64,000 bases of DNA, from the NCBI GenBank assembly GCA_000165345.1, contig CM000432.1:864001-928000 (forward strand), written 5' to 3'. The position numbers and the translations under genes were made by a program. The notes below the pieces were generated by a model. That model was not told the DNA's origin, did no database searches, and worked only from the letters and a program-made list of their open reading frames with translations. Each line of letters opens with the position of its first letter. Positions within the stretch are counted from its first letter, which is position 1. Shown here piece after piece: positions 12,047-45,958 of the stretch.

Positions 12047-12728
12047 GTCTTAGCTATCAATATTGATAATTTGTCATGGAGAAATATAAGAAATGAAGAT
12101 AATACAAGGATGAGGAGAGAGGAGAAATTATATTAGAGAAATGTTATGAAAAAATGTACATAAGTGACTAGTTTCGTTTGAATAAAAAAAAGTTAAGCCC
12201 ATTCTTAATATTAATCAAATAAAGACACATTAATAAACCGATTAGTATTTCTTTTTTTTAATAATAATTTTCATTTTTATTAACATATATATAATAATAA
12301 TAATATTTATATATTAATATTTTTTTTTAATTATAAATATTTAAAGAATATTAATATATAATAAAAATTAACGCGCGCAAATGCTCTGGTTTAGGAATTT
12401 GAATTAGATATATTATTTTTCGAGGCGCGATATTAGCGGGTAACGAGGGAAAATGATTGAAATATGGTGTAACATTCTGAAATTAATATAACTTTGGGTA
12501 TGTAAATATTTTAAACAAATTGTTGGATGTTAGTTTTTTTCATTATTTACATATTTTTCCTATAAGATACAGTGGATTATAACACGTGATTACTATTTGT
12601 GTAAGAGAAGTTGTTGAATGGCAGTAGCAATATTTGTCAGAATATTGATGCTATCAATTATTACTTAAATATAGAAATTTCTATTGATCTTTATTTATTT
12701 CAGTTTTTTGAAGTTTAAATGTTTTAAG

Positions 12729-15632
12729 ATGGGTTTAAACAATCTTGGATGTTTATTTTTGTTATCATTATGGTTATTTTTATGTGATTTACACAATTTT
12801 CAAGATTACTCATGCTTGAGAATATCAATTCTGAGTTTAAAGAGCGAAGTATGCGAAAATAGTGATACTGGAAGTGGTTCTTCGGATTTGGAGTCATCAG
12901 GGAATAGCGATAATGAGACGGAGAGCGATGCTGCATCTCAAGGCAGTCATGGAAGTAATGCAAGTTCTGGTGGAGAATCTAGCACTAACAGCCAACGAAG
13001 AATGTGGGCCCCACCTTCCCAACTTCAACCTTATGACGTTGGAGATACTGCATCTCGGGCTCTTTCACCTGCAGATCAACTAGATGCAGCACTTCAATTA
13101 GTTAGCGGTCTAGATTCTGATATAGGTAACGGAGGAGGATCAGAAACAGCTTTACAGTGGTGGGTAGACTATGGTGACGGGGGAAAAAAGCCAAAACCTG
13201 TGTTGACTTCATCTAGATCCAGCTCTTCTCGTGATTCTAGTAGTTCAGGAAAAGGTAAAACGGATGTTGATTCTGGATCCAAGAAAACTAGAAAAGGTAG
13301 CGCTGGATCAGGTGCAGCATGCGGAACTTCTGGAGGGCCGAGTAAGGCAGATAAAACAGGGAAGGTTGGCACGGCAGGTAAAGGAAAAGGCACTAGAGAC
13401 AAACAGGGTAGAACTCCAAGCAGACCAGGAGGAAGAGGAAGCGCTCAAAGCAGTACTTCAAGAGGTCCAAGCAGTGCTTCAAGAGGCCCAAGCAGTGCTT
13501 CAAGTAGCACTCCAAGCGGCCCGAGCAGCACTCCAAGTAGGGCTCCGAGCGGAATAGGAGGAAGAGGAGGCGCTTCAAGCAGCGCTCCAAGAGGTCCAAG
13601 CAGCACTCCAAGTAGCACTCCAAGTAGCACTCCAAGTAGCACTCCAAGTAGCACTCCAAGTAGCACTCCAAGTAGGGCTCCAAGTAGGTCTCCGGGCGGA
13701 TTAGGAGGAAGGGGAGGCGCTTCAAGCAGCTCTCCAAGGGGTCCAAGCAGCACTCCAAGTGGCCCGAGCGGCACTCTAAGCGAGTCGAGGAGCACTCCAA
13801 GTGGCACAGGCAGTGCCCCGACAGGAGCAGGCAAAGTTGCCACTACAGGCGGATCCAGCAGTAGCCCAAGCGCTCCAAGTGATACAGGCTCATTAGGGGG
13901 AATAAGTGGAGGTGCCACTTCAAGCGGAGCAGGAGGAAGCGGTAGCGGAGCAGGAGGAAGCGGTAGCGGAGCGGGAGGAGGTAGTAGTGGCGGAAGAGGA
14001 GGAGGAGGAGGAAGAAGAGGCAGGGAAGATGGCAGAGAGGAAGGAAATGAAGATGAAGATACAGACGATGATGAATCAGGCAATGGAGAAGATTCTGATA
14101 CCTCATCCAACTCAAGTGGATCTAGAAGAGAGGAAATCTTGAAAAAACTTAAAAAGATTAAAGAAACTGCAGCAAAAATGAATCAAAGAACCAAAGAATC
14201 TAGAGAAAAAAGAAATAAATCCCATAAGCCAGGAGGATTTTCCAGTAGCAGCTCCTTGTCATCATCATCAGGGTCATTATTTAGCAGTGATTTATCAGAT
14301 TCACACCGCGATTTATCTGAATTACTTTTATCTGCCTCAAGTAGTTCGACAAGTAGAGAAGCATTAGCAGCTCAAGGACCTCTTGAAACATCAGAAAGTG
14401 GAACAGGAGGCGGCGCAGCAGCAAGCGATGGAGGAGCAAGTGGTGGAGCAAGTGGTGGAGCAAGTGGTGGAGCAAGTGGTGGAGCAAGTGGAGGAGCAAG
14501 CGGGGGAGTAGGAGCTCTAGGTGGAGGTAAAAGAGGGGCTGGAGGAGCAGGTAGAGGAGCAGTAAGAGGAGCAAGTGGAGGAGCAAGTGGAGGAGCAAGT
14601 GGAGGAGCTAGTTCAGGAACTAGGGCCCGCTCTTCTTTGGTTACCAAGTCTATGCAAAGATCAAGGTCAAGATCAAGGTCAAGATCGAGGTCAAGGTCAT
14701 CAAAATCAAGAACATCAAGATCAAGGACATCAAGATCAAGATCAAGATCAAGAGCCATGGAAGAATCAAGTTGTGCAGCATCTTCATCAAGATCTTCGCT
14801 TCTTTCAACTCGTCAGTCTTCTGTAAGCGCAAGTTCTGTGTTTTTATCTATTTCCGCTCCAGTTAGTTTGTCAGTTTCAGTAAGTAGCTCAAGTTCAGGT
14901 CTAGTTGTACTGAAACTTTCGGATTCTGAAGTAGGAATCGTTGATCCATCCAAAACTAGAACAACTAGTAGAGGAGGAAGTGAAGGAGGAGAAAGAGGAG
15001 GAAGAGGAGGAAGAGGTGGAAGAGGTGGAGAAGGTGGAAGTGGAGGAAGAGGTGGAGGTGGGGGTGGAGGAAGAGGTGGAGGCGGAAGTGGCGATGGAGG
15101 AAAAAAAGCGCCTAAAAGTTATCTGGAAATGACGTTCGAATCTATATCCCAATTGAGAAGCAATTTTGGTTCCACTTTCGGCGCTTTATTAGACTCATTT
15201 GCTCTGCTAGTTGATTCTAGTTTCTCTGAGTCGTGCTTATCATTGATTGATTCTCTGGTTGATATCTGCAGCAAAAGGGATCTTACAAAAACAGCATTAT
15301 GTACAGAGATTTCAAGCATTATTAGTAAGTTAAAACAACTTGAGTCAAAATACTTGAAGTTATTATCAGAAGTTTCCAGCATTGGACCCCAACTAATGAG
15401 GGTAGATGAAGAATTATCTAAATTACAAAAGTCTTTAATAGGTTATGGTGGAGTGTCTTTGAAATCAACATATTTAAGTAGTGTTGAGACTCTGATGGAA
15501 AATGCAAAGAATTTGACTGAAGAAATAAGAAAGCTCCATAAAAGTTTAGAAGAGGCAAACTTACATCATTGTCAAGGTGGGCATTTGGATTTACTTAAAA
15601 CTCAACTTTTGACTTTCAAAATATTAAAATGA
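12729..15632 (+). CDS. Secreted mucin-like / SR-repeat protein, array member 1. The track ORF starts at TTG 12684; the first ATG is 12729.
   Basis: From the ATG the protein reads MGLNNLGCLFLLSLWLFLCDLHNFQD (signal peptide). It carries (STPS)n encoded by a 12-nt tandem repeat, GGASGGAS repeats, an RSRSRSRS tract and a Gly/Arg-rich tract. The C-terminal non-repetitive domain (SFALLVDSSFSESCLSLIDSLVDICSK...) resembles the C-terminal domains of the other array members. Confidence 0.75.
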   Translation: MGLNNLGCLFLLSLWLFLCDLHNFQDYSCLRISILSLKSEVCENSDTGSGSSDLESSGNSDNETESDAASQGSHGSNASSGGESSTNSQRRMWAPPSQLQPYDVGDTASRALSPADQLDAALQLVSGLDSDIGNGGGSETALQWWVDYGDGGKKPKPVLTSSRSSSSRDSSSSGKGKTDVDSGSKKTRKGSAGSGAACGTSGGPSKADKTGKVGTAGKGKGTRDKQGRTPSRPGGRGSAQSSTSRGPSSASRGPSSASSSTPSGPSSTPSRAPSGIGGRGGASSSAPRGPSSTPSSTPSSTPSSTPSSTPSSTPSRAPSRSPGGLGGRGGASSSSPRGPSSTPSGPSGTLSESRSTPSGTGSAPTGAGKVATTGGSSSSPSAPSDTGSLGGISGGATSSGAGGSGSGAGGSGSGAGGGSSGGRGGGGGRRGREDGREEGNEDEDTDDDESGNGEDSDTSSNSSGSRREEILKKLKKIKETAAKMNQRTKESREKRNKSHKPGGFSSSSSLSSSSGSLFSSDLSDSHRDLSELLLSASSSSTSREALAAQGPLETSESGTGGGAAASDGGASGGASGGASGGASGGASGGASGGVGALGGGKRGAGGAGRGAVRGASGGASGGASGGASSGTRARSSLVTKSMQRSRSRSRSRSRSRSSKSRTSRSRTSRSRSRSRAMEESSCAASSSRSSLLSTRQSSVSASSVFLSISAPVSLSVSVSSSSSGLVVLKLSDSEVGIVDPSKTRTTSRGGSEGGERGGRGGRGGRGGEGGSGGRGGGGGGGRGGGGSGDGGKKAPKSYLEMTFESISQLRSNFGSTFGALLDSFALLVDSSFSESCLSLIDSLVDICSKRDLTKTALCTEISSIISKLKQLESKYLKLLSEVSSIGPQLMRVDEELSKLQKSLIGYGGVSLKSTYLSSVETLMENAKNLTEEIRKLHKSLEEANLHHCQGGHLDLLKTQLLTFKILK
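13602..13673 (+). repeat. Six tandem copies of the 12-mer AGCACTCCAAGT, encoding (STPS)n.
   Basis: A perfect 12-nt tandem repeat is read directly in the sequence. Confidence 0.9.
14657..14753 (+). repeat. AGATCAAGGTCA-type repeat encoding an RS-dipeptide tract (RSRSRSRS...).
   Basis: An imperfect 6- to 12-nt tandem repeat lies inside CDS 12729..15632. Confidence 0.8.
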
Positions 15633-18930: not shown

Positions 18931-18941
18931 TTTCCCGCCAA
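18931..18941. promoter_or_regulatory. Canonical E2F-like TTTCCCGCCAA, about 470 bp upstream of the family gene at 19415. A second ATTACCGCCAAT lies at 19155-19166.
   Basis: Matches the TTTSSCGC consensus. Confidence 0.45.
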
Positions 18942-23735: not shown

Positions 23736-25142
23736 ATGGGTGTTAATTGTTTATTGAAAGTAAATTTTAATAAATATTTTTTACTAGTAGTTACAATAAT
23801 AGTATATTTCAATAATTTGATGTTCAACAATGAAGAAAAATTAAATGCAAGCATTGCTTCATATAATTTTAATTTTCCTGAAATAGAAGACAATTCTCAA
23901 AATTATATATTTTTTCCACAAAGCTTTTTGAATTTGTCTCTAAAAAATAATATATCTAAAGGCAGTTCCGGTGATGAGGGTTTGGGTTCAAATTCACGTT
24001 CAAGAACAAGCTCCGCATCTAGATCCAGGTCGGTGAGCTCGACTGGATCAACAAGACCAACAGGATCAACAGGACCAGCAGGATCAACAGGACCAGCAGG
24101 ATCAACAGGGCCAGCAGGATCAACAAGGCAAACGAGATCAACAGGACGAACAAGTTCGACAGGATCAACGGGACAAACAGGCTCTACAGGATCAACAAGG
24201 CAAGCGAGATCAACAGGACGAACAGGTTCGACAGGAGCAACAAGGCAAACAAATCCAACAGGATCAACAAGTCAAACGAGATCAACGAGACGAACAGGTT
24301 CGACAGGACCAACAAGGCAAACAAATCCAACAGGATCAGCAGGATCAGCAGGATCAACAGGACCTGCAGGACCAGAAGAAAGAGAACGTAACACTACTCC
24401 TGAAAATTTCTCTGAAAGTTATGAAAATGAATTTAAAAGATTGCAGAAAATAGATGCTAGCTATACTGAAAAAGAGAAGGTTTTAGTTACATGCCAACAA
24501 CTTATTGATTGGAGCGAATTGTTATCATTACTTTTGGACATGTTTGTAATTAAAGCTAGCGATCTCGATAGCTCTACCGCACTTGAAGAATGTTTAGCAA
24601 AATTGCTTGAAATTGGAGAAATAAAAAATCTCAGTTTGTACCCAGGGAATAGAGGAAGTTCACTATTACTCAAAGCAATTAAAAAAGTTTCTAGTGCTTT
24701 AAGCTCTCGAAATTCTTTAGAAAAGAAACTGCAGGATCTCCTTGCAAGCACTGTTTCATTACAAGATATGCTTTCTAGTCTGATCCTTGATTGCACTGCG
24801 AGCGCTACTCAGGTTATTTTGCTTTCTCACTTGCAATATTCAAGATTGACAAGCACTTATAATGAACTTAACACTAGAATCGAAGATGTTACTTCACTTA
24901 ATTCACATTTAAAGACTGTTGATGCAAATTTTTGCGATGAAACATTCATATCTAATATAAAATATTTAATTGTCAATATGAAAAAGAAAGTAAGATTTAA
25001 AGATGAATCTTCATCAAGTTCAAAAACTAAAAAACAAACTTCAAAGAAGCATTCCAGTCAATCAGCTGTAAGGAAACATTATATGAAACATACGTTAAGT
25101 TCAAGTGCTAAAGTTAGAAAAAAATACAATGGAGACAATTAA
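23736..25142 (+). CDS. Secreted family protein with ([12 protein letters not shown])n repeats, array member 5 (468 aa).
   Basis: ATG ORF. It has a hydrophobic signal and an [11 protein letters not shown]-terminus shared with the gene at 25751. It carries about 20 degenerate hexapeptide repeats ([25 protein letters not shown]...), [12 protein letters not shown] (family motif) and [14 protein letters not shown] (a KPRVxFKKG-like block). Its C-terminal domain is paralogous to that of 25751. Confidence 0.75.
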
Positions 25143-28705: not shown

Positions 28706-31700
28706 ATGCAGCTAATAAATATCATAATAAAAATAATTGTGATATTTGTGATTAATATAGAGTATTTTCCGAGAGAAGATAAAAAATTAGGCTTGGTTAT
28801 AAACTCTTTATTACATTTAACTTTGAAAAATAATATTGGTTCAAATTCTATATCAATGACAAATAATTTGGTTACTAGTACATCTACAAATGATCAAAGT
28901 ATAACGAGCGAATTCCAAAGAATGAATTCGATTGACATTAATGATGAAACCAATAATATTGAATCTGTGACTGTAAGTATAAGTTGCAATTCATTAGAAA
29001 GTTTGATTCGTGAATTGGAACTACGAAGTCAAATTCTTTCAATACAGGGACCAGCACTATTACATTCTCTAATAAGCAATGAATGCTTGGCTCATTTAGA
29101 AGAAATGGCTTTAATATGTATGAATAAGAAACATAGTAAATATCTTGGCTGTAGTATTATTAGAAAAAGTCTATACAAGGTTAGGAAACAAATTAAAAAG
29201 AATAACAGATATTTATTAAAAATAGCAAGATTTGAAGAAGCATTTATTACAATAATTCCAACTCTTAAAGGATATTATAGGAGTTGTGGTAATAATGTGA
29301 ATATTCCAGAGACTAAATTAAATGAATTTAAAAGTTTTGCTTCAAGTTTTGGTTTTATTTCTTTTTTGGCAGATTTGAGAAATGAAAATGAAAGGATTTT
29401 TTCAGAAATATGCGATTTTTCAATATTGAATGAGATGAAAAGGAAATTATTATCTTTTAAGCCACGAGTTACTTTCAAAAAAGGAACATGTTTTAAACCA
29501 AGAGGGAGAGATATTAAAGCACTAAGTCTTTCTCAATATTTAGATAGAAATGATAGGCTTTATGATTCTGAGTTAAAAAGTGGTGATTTTGGAGCTAAAT
29601 TGGGACAGAAAGTGGCCACAGTGCCAGAATCACGCTTAAGTTCAACTAGGATTACTTACTTTGGTGGGAGATCTAAGACGGGTTCAGATTCAGACTCCGA
29701 TTCAGATTCAGATTCGGACACAAGCTCAGATTCAGATTCGGATTCAGATTCAGATTCAGATTCAGATTCAGATTCGGATTCTGACTCAGATTCGGACTCA
29801 AATTCGAATTCAGATCCAAATTCAGAATCAGGAGGATTAGGAGGAGGAACAGGAGGATTAGAAGGAACAGGAGGAGGAGGAGAAGCGGGAACAGGAGGGT
29901 TGGGAGGAGGAGGAGGAACAGGAGGATTGGGAGGAGGAGGAGGAGGAACAGGAGCAGGGGAAGCAGGAGCAGGGACTGCGATGGGAAGAGGAGCGGGAAG
30001 AGTAAGGAGAGTATTACACTCAGCATTTTTCTCTGGTAAAAGCTCTGTTTTTTGCTCCAGCATTAATTTAGAATCTAGGCCATTTTTAAAAGAGAGGCAA
30101 GAGACTAAAAATGTTAAGGAAGAGCGTTTAGCAAGCATTCCAGAATCTGAATCGGATACTGACTCGGATTCAGACTCTGAAAGTTTAGGAAGCTCAATTG
30201 AAAAGCCAAGCGTTGAGGGAAATTTAAGAAAAGAGAGTGGATTATCAGGTTCAGAAACGAATACAGGAGAAGAAAGCACTAAGGCACTAGAGCGAGTTTC
30301 ATGCACGGGAGGAACAGATTCTGATACAACTGGAGACTTTGATAGTAGGTCGAGCGGAACACTAGGTTTTGTAATAAAAGGTTCAGGTTTGGGAGGATCG
30401 AGTTCAATAGAAGCTGCATTAGGGAGTTCAGGTTTAGGTGTATTGAGCTCAAGAGGAAGAGGCTCAGGTAGAGGAGGCTCAGTCCGAGGAAGAGCGAGCT
30501 CAGGAGCAATTAGAACCAACGGAGGCTCAAGTGGAATAGGAGCAAGCTCTGGAGGAAATGGTATGGGAAGACTCACAGGTAGGGGAGGATTAGGTTCAGG
30601 AACAGCTGGAAGCTCAAGCAGAGGAAGGGGCTTAGCCAGGGGAGGGTTAAGTTCAGAAGTAGTTGGAGCAATTGGAGGTCCAGATAGAGGAGGCTCAACT
30701 AGAGGAAGAGGCTCAGGCAGGGGAGGGTTAAGTTCAGGAGCAGTTGGGATAATTGGAAGCTCAAACAGAGGAAGAGGCTCAGACCGGGGAGGCTCAGGGA
30801 GAGGAGGCTCAAGCAGAATAGGAGCAAGCTTTGGAGCAGTTGGAGCAATTGGAGGTCCAGATAGAGGAAGCTCAAGCAGAGGAGGAATGAGCACAAGAGG
30901 AAGAGGTACGGGAAGATTTCCAAGTAGAGGAGGATCAAGCTCCGCAACGGCTGGAAGCTCAAGCAGAGGGGGGGCGAGCTCAGGAACTGTTGGAACAATT
31001 GGAGGCTCAGTAAGAGGAGGGGGCTCAAGCAGAGGAGGTCTGAACTCAAGAACAAGAGGCACGGAAATAATTCCAGGAAGGGGAAGACTAAGTTCAGGAG
31101 TAGTTGGAACAATTGAAGGTTCGGGTAGAGGAGGCTACAGTAGAGGAGGGTTAGGTTCAGGAACAACTGGAAGCTCAAGCAGAGGAAGGGGCTTAGCCAG
31201 GGGAGGGTTAAGTTCAGAAGTAGTTGGAACAATTGGAGGCTCAGTTAGAGGAGGCTCAGTTAGAGGAGGCTCAACTAGAGGAAGAGGCTCAGGGAGGGGA
31301 GGCTCAGGGAGAGGAGCAGTTGGAACAATTGGAGGCTCAGGGAGGGGAGGCTCAAGCAGAATAGGAGCAGGCTCTGGAGCAGTTGGAGCAATTGGAGGTC
31401 CAGATAGAGGAGGCTCAAACAGAGGCGGAATGAGCACAAGAGGAGGTTCAGGCAGAGGAGGAAGTGGTATAGGAAGACTCACAGGTAGGGGAAGGTTAGG
31501 TTCAGGAACAACAAACCATTCAAATTGTTCTTTAGGTACAACTGAACAGAGTATTACTTCCGATCTTCTAAACTCAAGATCAAGGTCAAGTTCAAAATCA
31601 ATAACAAGATCAAGATCAAGGTCAAGAACAAGATCAAGAACAAGAACAAGAACAAGATCAAGATCAAGATCAAGATCAAGATCAAGGACAAAAACAGATC

Positions 31701-31846
31701 CAGAATCTAATTCTAGATCTAGTCCAAAATCAGGAATAAGCTCAAATACTTCGCCGGCAAAAGATATTTCTGGTCTTAATAGAAAATTACCTTCATATAT
31801 GAAATCAACAATTAGTTCCAGAAACAAATCAGTATCGAGAAATTAA
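28706..31846 (+). CDS. Secreted mucin-like / SR-repeat protein, array member 7 (1046 aa).
   Basis: ATG ORF. It has the signal peptide MQLINIIIKIIVIFVINIEYF. It carries SEFQRMNSIDINDE (family motif) and KLLSFKPRVTFKKGTCFKPRGRD. It has a (DS)n tract from a GAYTCR hexamer repeat and Gly/Pro-rich and GGSSRGG Gly/Arg/Ser repeats, including a near-identical internal duplication of about 0.5 kb. It ends in an RSRSRSRTRSRTRTR RS tract. Confidence 0.75.
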   Translation: MQLINIIIKIIVIFVINIEYFPREDKKLGLVINSLLHLTLKNNIGSNSISMTNNLVTSTSTNDQSITSEFQRMNSIDINDETNNIESVTVSISCNSLESLIRELELRSQILSIQGPALLHSLISNECLAHLEEMALICMNKKHSKYLGCSIIRKSLYKVRKQIKKNNRYLLKIARFEEAFITIIPTLKGYYRSCGNNVNIPETKLNEFKSFASSFGFISFLADLRNENERIFSEICDFSILNEMKRKLLSFKPRVTFKKGTCFKPRGRDIKALSLSQYLDRNDRLYDSELKSGDFGAKLGQKVATVPESRLSSTRITYFGGRSKTGSDSDSDSDSDSDTSSDSDSDSDSDSDSDSDSDSDSDSDSNSNSDPNSESGGLGGGTGGLEGTGGGGEAGTGGLGGGGGTGGLGGGGGGTGAGEAGAGTAMGRGAGRVRRVLHSAFFSGKSSVFCSSINLESRPFLKERQETKNVKEERLASIPESESDTDSDSDSESLGSSIEKPSVEGNLRKESGLSGSETNTGEESTKALERVSCTGGTDSDTTGDFDSRSSGTLGFVIKGSGLGGSSSIEAALGSSGLGVLSSRGRGSGRGGSVRGRASSGAIRTNGGSSGIGASSGGNGMGRLTGRGGLGSGTAGSSSRGRGLARGGLSSEVVGAIGGPDRGGSTRGRGSGRGGLSSGAVGIIGSSNRGRGSDRGGSGRGGSSRIGASFGAVGAIGGPDRGSSSRGGMSTRGRGTGRFPSRGGSSSATAGSSSRGGASSGTVGTIGGSVRGGGSSRGGLNSRTRGTEIIPGRGRLSSGVVGTIEGSGRGGYSRGGLGSGTTGSSSRGRGLARGGLSSEVVGTIGGSVRGGSVRGGSTRGRGSGRGGSGRGAVGTIGGSGRGGSSRIGAGSGAVGAIGGPDRGGSNRGGMSTRGGSGRGGSGIGRLTGRGRLGSGTTNHSNCSLGTTEQSITSDLLNSRSRSSSKSITRSRSRSRTRSRTRTRTRSRSRSRSRSRTKTDPESNSRSSPKSGISSNTSPAKDISGLNRKLPSYMKSTISSRNKSVSRN
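29684..29830 (+). repeat. (GAYTCR)n hexanucleotide repeat encoding a poly(Asp-Ser) tract.
   Basis: About 24 tandem hexamers are read directly in the sequence. Confidence 0.9.
30575..31500 (+). repeat. Internal tandem duplication of an approximately 0.45-0.55 kb unit inside CDS 28706..31846.
   Basis: Segments 30575-30700 and 31135-31260 are near-identical: GTTAGGTTCAGGAACARCTGGAAGCTCAAGCAGAGGAAGGGGCTTAGCCAGGGGAGGGTTAAGTTCAGAAGTAGTTGGA. Segments 30860-30920 and 31400-31460 are also near-identical (GGAATGAGCACAAGAGGA). The protein repeat is GSSSRGRGLARGGLSSEVVG[AT]IGG. Confidence 0.75.
31574..31690 (+). repeat. AGATCAAG / AACAAGATCAAG tandem repeat encoding an RS/RT-dipeptide tract.
   Basis: Read directly in the sequence. 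It is the same repeat type as at 14657-14753 in the gene at 12729. Confidence 0.85.
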
Positions 31847-42664: not shown

Positions 42665-43297
42665 TTTCTTATTCTCTTTTTTTTCCCCCTATATTTTCAA
42701 GTAGAATAAAAAAAAAAAGCAAAAACCTAATTTAATTAAAGTTTTTATCAAATTTAAAAAGAACAAAAAAACCTTAATTTTTTTTTCTATAAAAGTAATT
42801 GACATTGCATTTATATTGCAGTTGTGCATAACAATAAGTTACCGGCATTTATAACTAAGTTTCGTGTTATTTTCTATTAATTCCTCTTGTGGGGGCAAAA
42901 AATAAGGAGACTCCTAAACTATTCTATTATTTAAATTAGTACTAAAATTAATAGTTTTACTATTTTTATTTATTAGAAGACGTGAAGTATTATTATTAAT
43001 AAAAAATAATTTATTTAAAATTGACACACATCAGGCGGGCTCTGCCCAACAAATTAATTTAAGAAAATGCAGCTTTAATGTTAGAGCATTTAAATACTTA
43101 TAATTATTTCATAAGAAGACGTCAATTTGAATTGTTGTTTAGCAATATTAATCCTTTATAATTCTCTCTTTATTTTTATTAACTCTGAAGACAACTATTA
43201 ATGGTTTTTTTGTTAAAACCAAATAATTATTATCCTAAATTATATTATCCTCGCATTTTGCTTTATATTACGTAATTACATGTAATAATTACAATTA

Positions 43298-43313
43298 TTT
43301 GCATGCATATTTG
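43298..43313. promoter_or_regulatory. TTTGCATGCATATTTG G-box, about 640 bp upstream of the ATG at 42664 (-). A palindromic ATTACATGTAAT lies at 43263-43274 and AGGCGGGC at 43033-43040.
   Basis: Read directly in the sequence. Confidence 0.35.
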
Positions 43314-43804
43314 TTTTCTGTTAGAGTTTTGTAATGTGGCAATGAAATTATTAAATTACATACCGGTGTTCAAGTTGGAAAATTATGTGTCACAATAACA
43401 TTTATTTACAAAAACTATTAATATTATTTTATTCTTAAATAAAAACATTATGAAATATTTATTTATTATTGATCATTATTTCTTTTCAATTTTTGAAAAA
43501 ACATTGTAATATCTTGATAAATTCTTTCTCTAAATAAATATAATTTGTGTAAAATTAGAAACAATAAAAATCAATAGGTAGAATAATAGCTGTAAGATAA
43601 TAGGAGAAATGAAATAAGGTAATTGTAAGGAAAAAAAAAGTTGAAAAGTTTATATTCTAGATTTATTAGAATAATAATATTAATAGTAGTTTGCGAAATA
43701 TAGGTGAATTCTATGTATTGACAAGAAGGAATTCGCGAAAAGAAAACTTGAAATTCAAGAAATTCCTCCATATAAAAACTCCCATCACTTTGGTGGAGAT
43801 AAAT

Positions 43805-44222
43805 TTAATGTTCTTCAGCTTTGTGGATAGGATTAATGAGTGGAAACATTTGAGAAAGGTAAACGCAAAACCACATAATCCATAGGCAGAAAGTCATCAT
43901 TACTACCACAACAAGTGAAATCCTGAGAAGGCAAAAAAGTTATTAGTAGGTAATTTGCAGTTCTAGCCATCGTTTCAATGCAAAATTGATCTGTTTTGTA
44001 TTACTTTTTGTAAACAAAATCAGCAAATGACCAGAAGAAAATGCATCCTTTGACTAACAAAAGATACATATCCAATAATTAAACTTACTTAGCAGTATCA
44101 GATCTGGAAAGATTCTTACTTCCCTTAATACCAAAATATACTGTTGAAGAAACCGCAGCAATGAAACCCAGTACTCCAAAAATTATTGAACCAAAAATCG
44201 CATTATCATAAGGAGGAGCCAT
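43805..44222 (-). CDS. V-type H+-ATPase V0 subunit e (ATP6V0E/Vma9-like), 83 aa, two exons: complement(join(43805..43922,44089..44222)).
   Basis: Exon 1 (ATG 44222) encodes MAPPYDNAIFGSIIFGVLGFIAAVSSTVYFGIKGSKNLSRSDTA, ends in phase 2 and is followed by GTAAGT. A 166-nt intron ends in ...TTTTGCCTTCTCAG. Exon 2 encodes KISLVVVVMMTFCLWIMWFCVYLSQMFPLINPIHKAEEH. The protein has two TM helices and resembles metazoan subunit e: [20 protein letters not shown] aligns with FGVLGFIAAV..GIKGSKNLS, and CYLFWLIAILAQLNPLFGP aligns with CLWIMWFCVYLSQMFPLINP. Confidence 0.55.
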
Positions 44223-44356: not shown

Positions 44357-44370
44357 TTTGGGCGGGAAAG
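44357..44370. promoter_or_regulatory. TTTGGGCGGGAAAG E2F-like site in the divergent promoter between the V-ATPase e gene (-) and the BCNT gene (+).
   Basis: Close match to the TTTSGCGGGAAA E2F consensus. It lies about 135 bp from ATG 44222 and about 460 bp from ATG 44828. Confidence 0.45.
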
Positions 44371-44827: not shown

Positions 44828-45958
44828 ATGGCAACTATTAATAATGCAGTATTTTTGTCAGATGATGAAGAAGATGAATCCTTTCATGGATCTGATGCCT
44901 CTTCTATAATAGAAGGTGAGAGGTAAGTCTTTAATAAATTAGATGGATTTTTTTTTTAAATATATTTAATTTCTACCACTTTAATATTTATGAACATAAA
45001 AGTTCTGAAGAAGAGGTTTCTAGTTCAACAAATAGAAAATCGAAAAAATCATCTTTAAAAGATGTAATTAATGATCGAAAAGTAGAAAAGATATACAAAG
45101 AGTTATTGGAAGAATCTAAAAAGGAATTTCAAGAAAGAGTATCTACTGTAAGTAAAGACCATTTTATGTTGGAATTTCAAAAGAAGTGTTTTGATCCATT
45201 AAGAAAGAAAAATTCGAATTTACATGAATTAAGACATTATGTAGATCTTGGTGTAAGTTTACAATTCCTCAAAACTAATGGAGAAATTGTTTGGAAAGAA
45301 TTATCAGAGAATTCTCAGCATAACAAAATTAATATAAGTTATGAAGCAAAGAGATTATCACAATTCTTACTTACTTAATCTCCATTTGATAATCGATTTT
45401 CTATTCACTAATTTCTTAATCACCTTTTCTTATAAATAGATTTCCAAAGTATTTGAGAATCCAATAAACTTTGATATTTCAAAATTCAAAATTTCGAGCC
45501 GAAATCTGAGCAAAGAATCAGAGAAAGAAACACGTAGGATGATTGAGGAAGCTCTAGGAAGTTTAGAGGAAAAAGGAGTGCGATATATTGATAAGAAAGT
45601 TAAATATGCAGGTGAAACGTACACTATTAAAGAAAAAGTCGACCCGGAGACATTTTCAAGGAAAAAAGCACGAACATCTTCCACAGGAATGCAAGCTCTT
45701 GATGAAATTGTTGCTAATCTTAATAAGGAAATTAACATTAACTCAATACAAAAATCACACTCTGATTGGACTGAATTTAGACAGATGGCGGGCCTCGAAT
45801 CTCAGCTTGAGCGCCAAAGAAAACATGGCTATATTTCAAAGACGGCATTTCTGCAAAAAGCAGATTGGAAATTACATGAAAAAGAACTTGAGATTAAGAG
45901 AAGAAGCGGTGGTAATAACAATATTAGCAGTAGTAGCAATGCAAGCGGTAACTAAAAG
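44828..45958 (+). CDS. BCNT-C domain protein (CFDP1 / Swc5 homolog), three exons: join(44828..44922,45003..45252,45440..45958).
   Basis: Exon 1 encodes MATINNAVFLSDDEEDESFHGSDASSIIEGE and is followed by GTAAGT at 44923 (phase 2). An 80-nt intron ends in AG at 45002. Exon 2 encodes SSEEEVSSSTNRKSKK...RHYVDLG and is followed by an in-phase GTAAGT at 45253. An alternative in-phase GTAAGT exists at 45148. A 187-nt intron with a pyrimidine tract ends in AG at 45439, and the frame is continuous into exon 3. The C-terminus SHSDWTEFRQMAGLESQLERQRKHGYISKTAFLQKADWKLHEKELEIKRR matches the BCNT-C domain (human CFDP1 [50 protein letters not shown]). Confidence 0.6.

Follow-up and report, generated by a model that had tools for sequence, protein, structure and literature searches.

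A once-spliced gene predicted to encode V-ATPase subunit e in nine Cryptosporidium lineages, with annotation gaps in four species

Subunit e of the V-ATPase is a 9-kDa protein with two membrane helices and a short cytosolic tail; its loss in yeast produces the Vma- phenotype, it is a partner of Vma21p in the late stages of V0 assembly, which it has been proposed to complete, and its precise function is described as elusive in the same V-ATPase review (PMC9280200). Chains of this subunit are available in the PDB from plants (VHA-e: 36qu_e, "subunit e2", and 7uw9_e, "subunit e1"), yeast (Vma9p: 6m0r_M and 5vox_c) and mammals (ATP6V0E1/E2: 6vq6_e and 6wlw_S). For Cryptosporidium, subunit H of the C. 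parvum V-ATPase has been mentioned in passing (PMC13432881), and a literature search on Cryptosporidium V-ATPase subunit e, or on the presumed gene identifier cgd4_3725, returned nothing specific. The locus described here lies on the minus strand of a 64,000-nt stretch of DNA (hereafter, the window), and it is very probably the Cryptosporidium V0 subunit e gene, spliced once to yield an 83-aa, two-helix hairpin with a presumed role in pump assembly. Its predicted features are as follows:

43805..44222, minus strand: V-ATPase V0 subunit e gene (Vma9/ATP6V0E family), ATG to stop, 418 nt, two exons, 83 aa
44089..44222, minus strand: exon 1, 134 nt; ATG at 44222..44220; aa 1-44 plus two bases of Lys45, ending in phase 2
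43923..44088, minus strand: intron, 166 nt, phase 2; donor GTAAGT at 44088..44083, acceptor AG at 43924..43923
43942..43948, minus strand: branch-point-like TACTAAT, with the A at 43943 as candidate branch base, 20 nt 5' of the acceptor G
43925..43939, minus strand: pyrimidine-rich tract CTTTTTTGCCTTCTC, read from the sequence, immediately 5' of the acceptor AG
43805..43922, minus strand: exon 2, 118 nt; third base of Lys45 plus aa 46-83; stop TAA at 43807..43805

The splice borders read AA/GTAAGT at the donor and CAG/G at the acceptor, and the 3' end of the intron reads ...ACTTTTTTGCCTTCTCAG (also given as ...TACTAATAACTTTTTTGCCTTCTCAG); the TACTAAT looks like a branch site, as a candidate only. 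The spliced coding sequence is 252 nt long and its 83-aa product is MAPPYDNAIFGSIIFGVLGFIAAVSSTVYFGIKGSKNLSRSDTAKISLVVVVMMTFCLWIMWFCVYLSQMFPLINPIHKAEEH, or, split at the exon junction, MAPPYDNAIFGSIIFGVLGFIAAVSSTVYFGIKGSKNLSRSDTAK followed by ISLVVVVMMTFCLWIMWFCVYLSQMFPLINPIHKAEEH. Exon 1 holds the first predicted transmembrane helix (approximately aa 8-30) and most of the loop KGSKNLSRSDTAK; exon 2 holds the second (approximately aa 46-72) and the motif W62...Q69-M-F-P72-L-I-N-P76, with aa 46-83 including ISLVVVVMMTFCLWIMWFCVYLSQMFPLINPIHK and the protein terminating in AEEH. The Kyte-Doolittle hydropathy profile has two peaks that coincide with these segments, and an AF2 model of moderate confidence (pLDDT 68) consists of two helices, at residues 4-33 and 41-81. 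The initial annotation had proposed this two-exon layout, with a phase-2 GTAAGT donor, a 166-nt intron with a pyrimidine-rich 3' end, a 45-codon first exon carrying one membrane helix, and a second helix in exon 2; the layout proved exact to the base, and both helices are present.

Without splicing, the frame from the ATG at 44222 comprises 45 codons followed by TAA at 44087..44085, and the final G of codon 45 (AAG) doubles as the first base of the donor. The exons appear in the ORF list as two unlinked ORFs of 45 and 34 aa, both of which fall under the default cut-off of 60 aa for that list; the gene is missing from the ORF track because a bacterial-style list cannot join exons. The initial description of the gene as "not represented" is accurate for the ORF list, where it reflects a property of the tool, but the gene is already present in public annotations. 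Scans of the whole window against Rfam (at gathering thresholds) and for tRNA gave no matches, and no other V-ATPase subunit was identified among the ORFs scanned in the window.

Membership of the subunit e family, as the initial annotation had assigned it, is borne out at the level of sequence by the spliced protein's match to Pfam PF05493 (ATP_synt_H, V-ATPase subunit e/Vma9) with E = 1e-12 and 48.8 bits, above the gathering cut-off of 25. Residues 9-78 of the protein align with positions 3-60 of the 62 in the profile, across the exon junction; with exon 1 alone as the query there is no Pfam match. A phmmer search of the PDB returned subunit e chains from plants, yeast and mammals as the top seven matches and as 10 of 11 overall, with alignments that run through the junction. 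The E-values are 5e-9 and 3e-6 for the plant chains 36qu_e and 7uw9_e, 0.035-0.1 for yeast and mammalian e, and up to 3.5 for other e chains; the sole match outside the family, in eighth place, is a SemiSWEET sugar transporter (E = 0.43). The reconstructed C. andersoni orthologue has the same top PDB matches. Foldseek comparison of the AF2 model with the PDB returned only generic helical hairpins (best E = 1.7), as expected of a two-helix protein with so little information in its shape; the outcome counts neither for nor against the assignment, and sequence profiles were relied on instead.

Among the structurally described proteins, plant VHA-e is the most similar: its two chains are two-helix V0 proteins that align with the Cryptosporidium protein over aa 10-82, including the pattern CxWxMWxxVYxxQMxPLIxPI, and CLWIMWFCVYLSQMFPLINPI forms part of that alignment. 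Plant VHA-e has 70 aa, and the Cryptosporidium protein differs from it in a loop that is seven residues longer (KNLSRSD) and in a short N-terminal extension (MAPPYDNA). Yeast Vma9p and mammalian ATP6V0E1/E2 likewise belong to PF05493 and share the hairpin layout and the C-terminal motif Q-x2-P-L-x2-P, although their pairwise similarity to the Cryptosporidium protein is weak (E = 0.035-3.5). An exhaustive HMMER scan of 1.84 billion representative sequences yielded 60 proteins at E <= 1e-3, and the matches from outside Cryptosporidium are mostly 67-126 aa long and 26-44% identical; the top-ranked of them cover approximately aa 8-81 of the query, and some of the lower-ranked are shorter fragments of the C-terminal part only. 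An alignment was made of 25 of the representatives together with the window protein and the reconstructed protein of C. andersoni, 27 sequences that all belong to PF05493. In this alignment P72 and P76 are invariant, G11, W62 and Q69 are at least 90% conserved, and no gap falls at the exon junction. The family motif at the end of helix 2, W...Q-[ML]-x-P-[LIM]-[IV]-x-P, is represented in the window protein by W62, Q69, P72 and P76, so that the resemblance to the ATP6V0E C-terminus noted initially holds at its invariant and near-invariant positions.

To compare the locus across the genus, sequences were gathered via orthologues of the downstream 1309-aa TPR protein and via annotated subunit e matches, giving nine lineages: the C. 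parvum type, the C. hominis type, C. meleagridis, C. ubiquitum, C. canis, C. felis, C. ryanae, C. bovis, and the distant gastric species C. andersoni. Both exons were located by tblastn in all nine, between the BCNT gene and the TPR gene. In each lineage the reconstructed product has 83 aa, the intron follows the second base of the same Lys codon, the donor is AA/GTAAGTT, and unspliced read-through ends at codon 46; the acceptor is CAG, with C. bovis (TAG) as the one exception. Intron 3' ends are T/C-rich in most orthologues, the exceptions being C. ryanae (...GAAAACAG) and C. bovis (...CATAAATAG), and CTAAT/TTAAC-like motifs lie about equally far from the acceptor in the introns of the hominis type, C. 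meleagridis, C. ubiquitum, C. canis and C. andersoni, although the match is not strict in every species. The intron itself ranges from 108 to 278 nt, in lengths that differ modulo 3:

C. andersoni: 108 nt
C. felis: 155 nt
C. canis: 160 nt
C. parvum type (window), C. hominis type and C. meleagridis: 166 nt
C. ubiquitum: 172 nt
C. bovis: 230 nt
C. ryanae: 278 nt

Relative to the window, the lineage set as a whole has coding identities of 0.66-0.99 and intron identities of 0.44-0.97, the latter near-random at the larger distances: in the five most distant lineages (C. canis outward), intron identity is 0.44-0.58 versus 0.66-0.85 for the coding sequence. Amino acid identity in exon 1 is 58-100% over all Cryptosporidium loci. 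For the five species below, coding identity to the window is 0.78-0.90, and the codon differences are predominantly synonymous:

C. ubiquitum: 22 synonymous, 2 non-synonymous; intron identity 0.70
C. canis: 34 synonymous, 2 non-synonymous; intron identity 0.58
C. felis: 39 synonymous, 6 non-synonymous; intron identity 0.51
C. ryanae: 39 synonymous, 10 non-synonymous; intron identity 0.44
C. bovis: 32 synonymous, 13 non-synonymous; intron identity 0.50

As read from these comparisons, the locus consists of two coding exons under purifying selection and a freely evolving spliceosomal intron, and the in-frame conservation of both exons across the genus, together with the PF05493 match, is far beyond what chance would produce. 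Constraint is unusually strong within the genus on the helix 2 region (residues 47-83, 37 aa; 43808..43918, minus strand), as judged from its sequence: it is identical in all intestinal species examined but for one substitution in C. bovis, with 13-21 synonymous codon changes in the more distant intestinal species (C. ubiquitum to C. ryanae). The adjoining TPR protein is just 50% identical between C. parvum and C. ryanae, two species in which residues 47-83 remain identical. Such a frozen helix may represent a Cryptosporidium-specific contact within the pump, a less speculative idea than that of a single-helix decoy, which is considered next.

Five AG dinucleotides lie between the donor and the chosen acceptor, not two as the initial annotation had counted, although it was right that nearer ones exist; with every AG enumerated, exon 2 would begin at 44053, 44047, 44003, 43990 or 43962, their products would be 55, 53, 64, 49 and 87 aa long, and the four shorter ones (49-64 aa) reach a stop 4-19 residues past exon 1. 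The 87-aa product (exon 2 from 43962), the one among the five that the Pfam scan covered, has no PF05493 match. If the acceptors at 44053 and 44047 were used besides the one that gives the 83-aa form, a single-helix isoform of 53-55 aa would result and could act as a regulated decoy in V0 assembly, but we regard such alternative splicing as improbable. Less probable still is that these sites replace the chosen acceptor altogether, with exon 2 starting at 44053 or 44047, the product a single-pass protein of 53-55 aa, and the segment resembling subunit e left untranslated. The AGs do exist, TTTTGTTAG at 44053 being preceded by a short T-rich run, and the C. ryanae annotation likewise uses another acceptor, for a product of 57 aa; that model, however, omits a perfectly conserved exon 2, and the introns implied in the window would be only 35-41 nt long, against a C. 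parvum mean of 99 nt (PMC4637869). The nearer AGs lack a conserved counterpart because the intron sequence is not conserved between species, and in-frame purifying selection on exon 2 would be senseless if that exon were untranslated. Conservation of the exons alongside a diverging intron therefore excludes the nearer acceptors as the conserved form, and the acceptor at 43924..43923, initially chosen on homology, is now also backed by the comparison of nine lineages. A 26-nt probe across the exon-exon junction had no matches in JGI metagenome contigs, a collection in which Cryptosporidium RNA is not expected.

It is exceedingly unlikely that the unspliced 45-codon ORF (44222..44085) is a stand-alone, single-pass microprotein to which the similarity in exon 2 is coincidental. 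Prokaryote-style gene callers do report the 45-aa ORF on Logan and ENA contigs, and approximately 90% of C. parvum genes are without introns (PMC4637869); against this, the ORF by itself has no family match, GTAAGTT overlaps its last codon in all nine lineages, exon 2 always lies in the required phase despite intron lengths that differ modulo 3, and homologues from other eukaryotes align continuously across both exons. As a separate observation, the 90%-identity protein cluster of these 45-aa ORFs also includes an unrelated JGI metagenome sequence, a 293-aa membrane protein rich in Ala and Leu, apparently through a clustering artefact of the database.

E2F-like boxes of the GGCGGGAA type are a recognised over-represented upstream motif in Cryptosporidium. 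One such box precedes the subunit e gene:

44361..44369, minus strand: TTTCCCGCC, an E2F-like box 139-147 nt 5' of the subunit e ATG (reverse complement GGCGGGAAA)

Eight of the nine lineages have its core, TTCCCGCC, at -131 to -146 relative to the ATG; in C. andersoni the upstream region shows TTTCCCGC at -123 and, at -101, a TGGCGCCA box. The core occurs five times in the window versus 0.17 expected, the other copies being at 18932, 46248, 56414 and 57989. The box is probably a promoter element. It sits in the intergenic spacer common to the subunit e gene and the divergent BCNT gene, and therefore either or both of these genes may use it.

Under the preferred reading, of a once-spliced subunit e gene, transcription would probably start from this short intergenic region, a single splicing event would remove the 166-nt intron, and the mRNA would be translated into an 83-aa hairpin whose two transmembrane helices are connected through a short basic loop. 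If it behaves like yeast Vma9p and the subunit e of plants and animals, the 9-kDa hairpin would be inserted in the ER and take a peripheral place in the V0 sector, where it would be needed for the assembly or stability of a functional pump while carrying no protons itself; the assembly role is established for Vma9p in yeast, and it extends to the Cryptosporidium protein by analogy only. That the locus is instead what remains of a subunit e gene in decay or no longer expressed is hardly credible, given a frame, an 83-aa length and splice signals intact in nine lineages (distant C. andersoni included), a large surplus of synonymous over non-synonymous change, a conserved upstream box, and the read-mapping support that Isaza et al. 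required for new gene models in their RNA-seq-supported re-annotation (PMC4637869), from which the public model probably stems, judging by its accession series.

The gene is already known: it is present in public annotations of C. parvum and C. hominis, and it is an ordinary housekeeping gene rather than a discovery. The exact 83-aa sequence is found in NCBI (CUV05815.1, KAK9173120.1, KAL3128530.1 and KAL5369063.1) and in UniProt (A0A0S4TFK7_CRYHO, "ATPase V0 complex subunit e1/e2", equivalent to CUV05815.1). CUV05815.1/A0A0S4TFK7 and KAK9173120.1 represent the same gene without any difference, in the same order of neighbors (methyltransferase, BCNT, subunit e, 1309-aa TPR protein), and the public model agrees with that of the initial annotation in its 418-nt extent, intron and product. 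The same 418-nt gene is called on 12 public contigs of C. parvum or C. hominis type, and the contigs carrying the 83-aa product are all genomic and at least 0.2 Mb long. One of the sequences in which it is called, CP029783.1 (GCA_031892065.1), has no mismatches to the window over 12,418 nt; identity to the window is 99.86% for another C. parvum-type chromosome and approximately 96.5% for C. hominis-type assemblies. The window accordingly comes from a C. parvum-type chromosome, probably number 4 to judge by the locus tag of the gene. Close orthologues with an annotation include those of C. felis ("putative V-type ATPase V0 subunit e", 93% identical), C. ubiquitum ("hydrogen-transporting ATP synthase") and C. 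xiaoi. The label "hypothetical protein" persists in some records of C. parvum and C. hominis, among them KAK9173120.1 (C. parvum, "hypothetical protein CPHLJ_4g3725"), and the supplement of the re-annotation paper contains cgd4_3720 and cgd4_3730, with the subunit e gene absent (PMC4637869).

What is new here is a set of annotation gaps in C. andersoni, C. bovis, C. canis and C. ryanae, with no novelty for C. parvum or C. hominis. In the first three of these assemblies an intact gene (83 aa, same intron position) is uncalled, and in C. ryanae it is mis-spliced:

C. andersoni, LRBS01000034.1 (locus L009), 3698..4057: uncalled; ATG at 3698, last sense codon ending at 4054, stop at 4055-4057
C. 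bovis, VHIT02000053.1 (locus L011), 3281..3762: uncalled; sense codons end at 3759, stop at 3760-3762
C. canis, JAPCXC010000053.1 (locus L014), 3601..4012: uncalled; sense codons end at 4009, stop at 4010-4012
C. ryanae, FG386_003319 (locus L002), 5001..5530: mis-spliced; true exon 2 from 5413, last sense codon ending at 5527, stop at 5528-5530

The C. ryanae model (57 aa, "hypothetical protein") is correct at the donor but passes over the true exon 2 and resumes at an acceptor approximately 60 nt past the real stop, so that its annotated second exon extends from about 5591 to 5630, the end of the gene range. Inventories of V-ATPase subunits that rely on such annotations would wrongly count subunit e as absent. 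For biology the finding carries little weight, subunit e being standard in every eukaryotic V-ATPase; for annotation, the base-accurate joining of these exons from sequence alone indicates that short split genes are recoverable without RNA data.

The surroundings of the gene include a second split gene that is hidden from the bacterial-style ORF track. The BCNT-domain gene (PF07572, 286 aa; 44828..45955, plus strand) spans approximately 1128 nt in the public gene table, of which about 267 nt must therefore be intron; all that the ORF list shows of its first exon is a 32-aa ORF (44828..44926). On the other side, a spacer of 1.1 kb (42665..43804) separates the subunit e stop codon from the TPR gene's ATG, roughly twice the C. 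parvum mean intergenic length of 552 nt (PMC4637869). This spacer contains no ORF longer than 66 aa and gave no match to Rfam or in the tRNA scan; UTRs or an unannotated non-coding transcript may lie in it. Elsewhere in the window there are three islands of high G+C content (0.39-0.54, against approximately 0.28 in the remainder):

12684..15632, plus strand: high-G+C island
23736..25142, plus strand: high-G+C island
28706..31846, plus strand: high-G+C island

These islands have a strong purine skew and coincide with long ORFs rich in 6-96-nt tandem repeats (with units such as GGAGGAGCAAG, GGATCAACAGGACCAACA and TCAAGA). The repeat ORFs have no Pfam match, and from their composition they look like low-complexity repetitive proteins.
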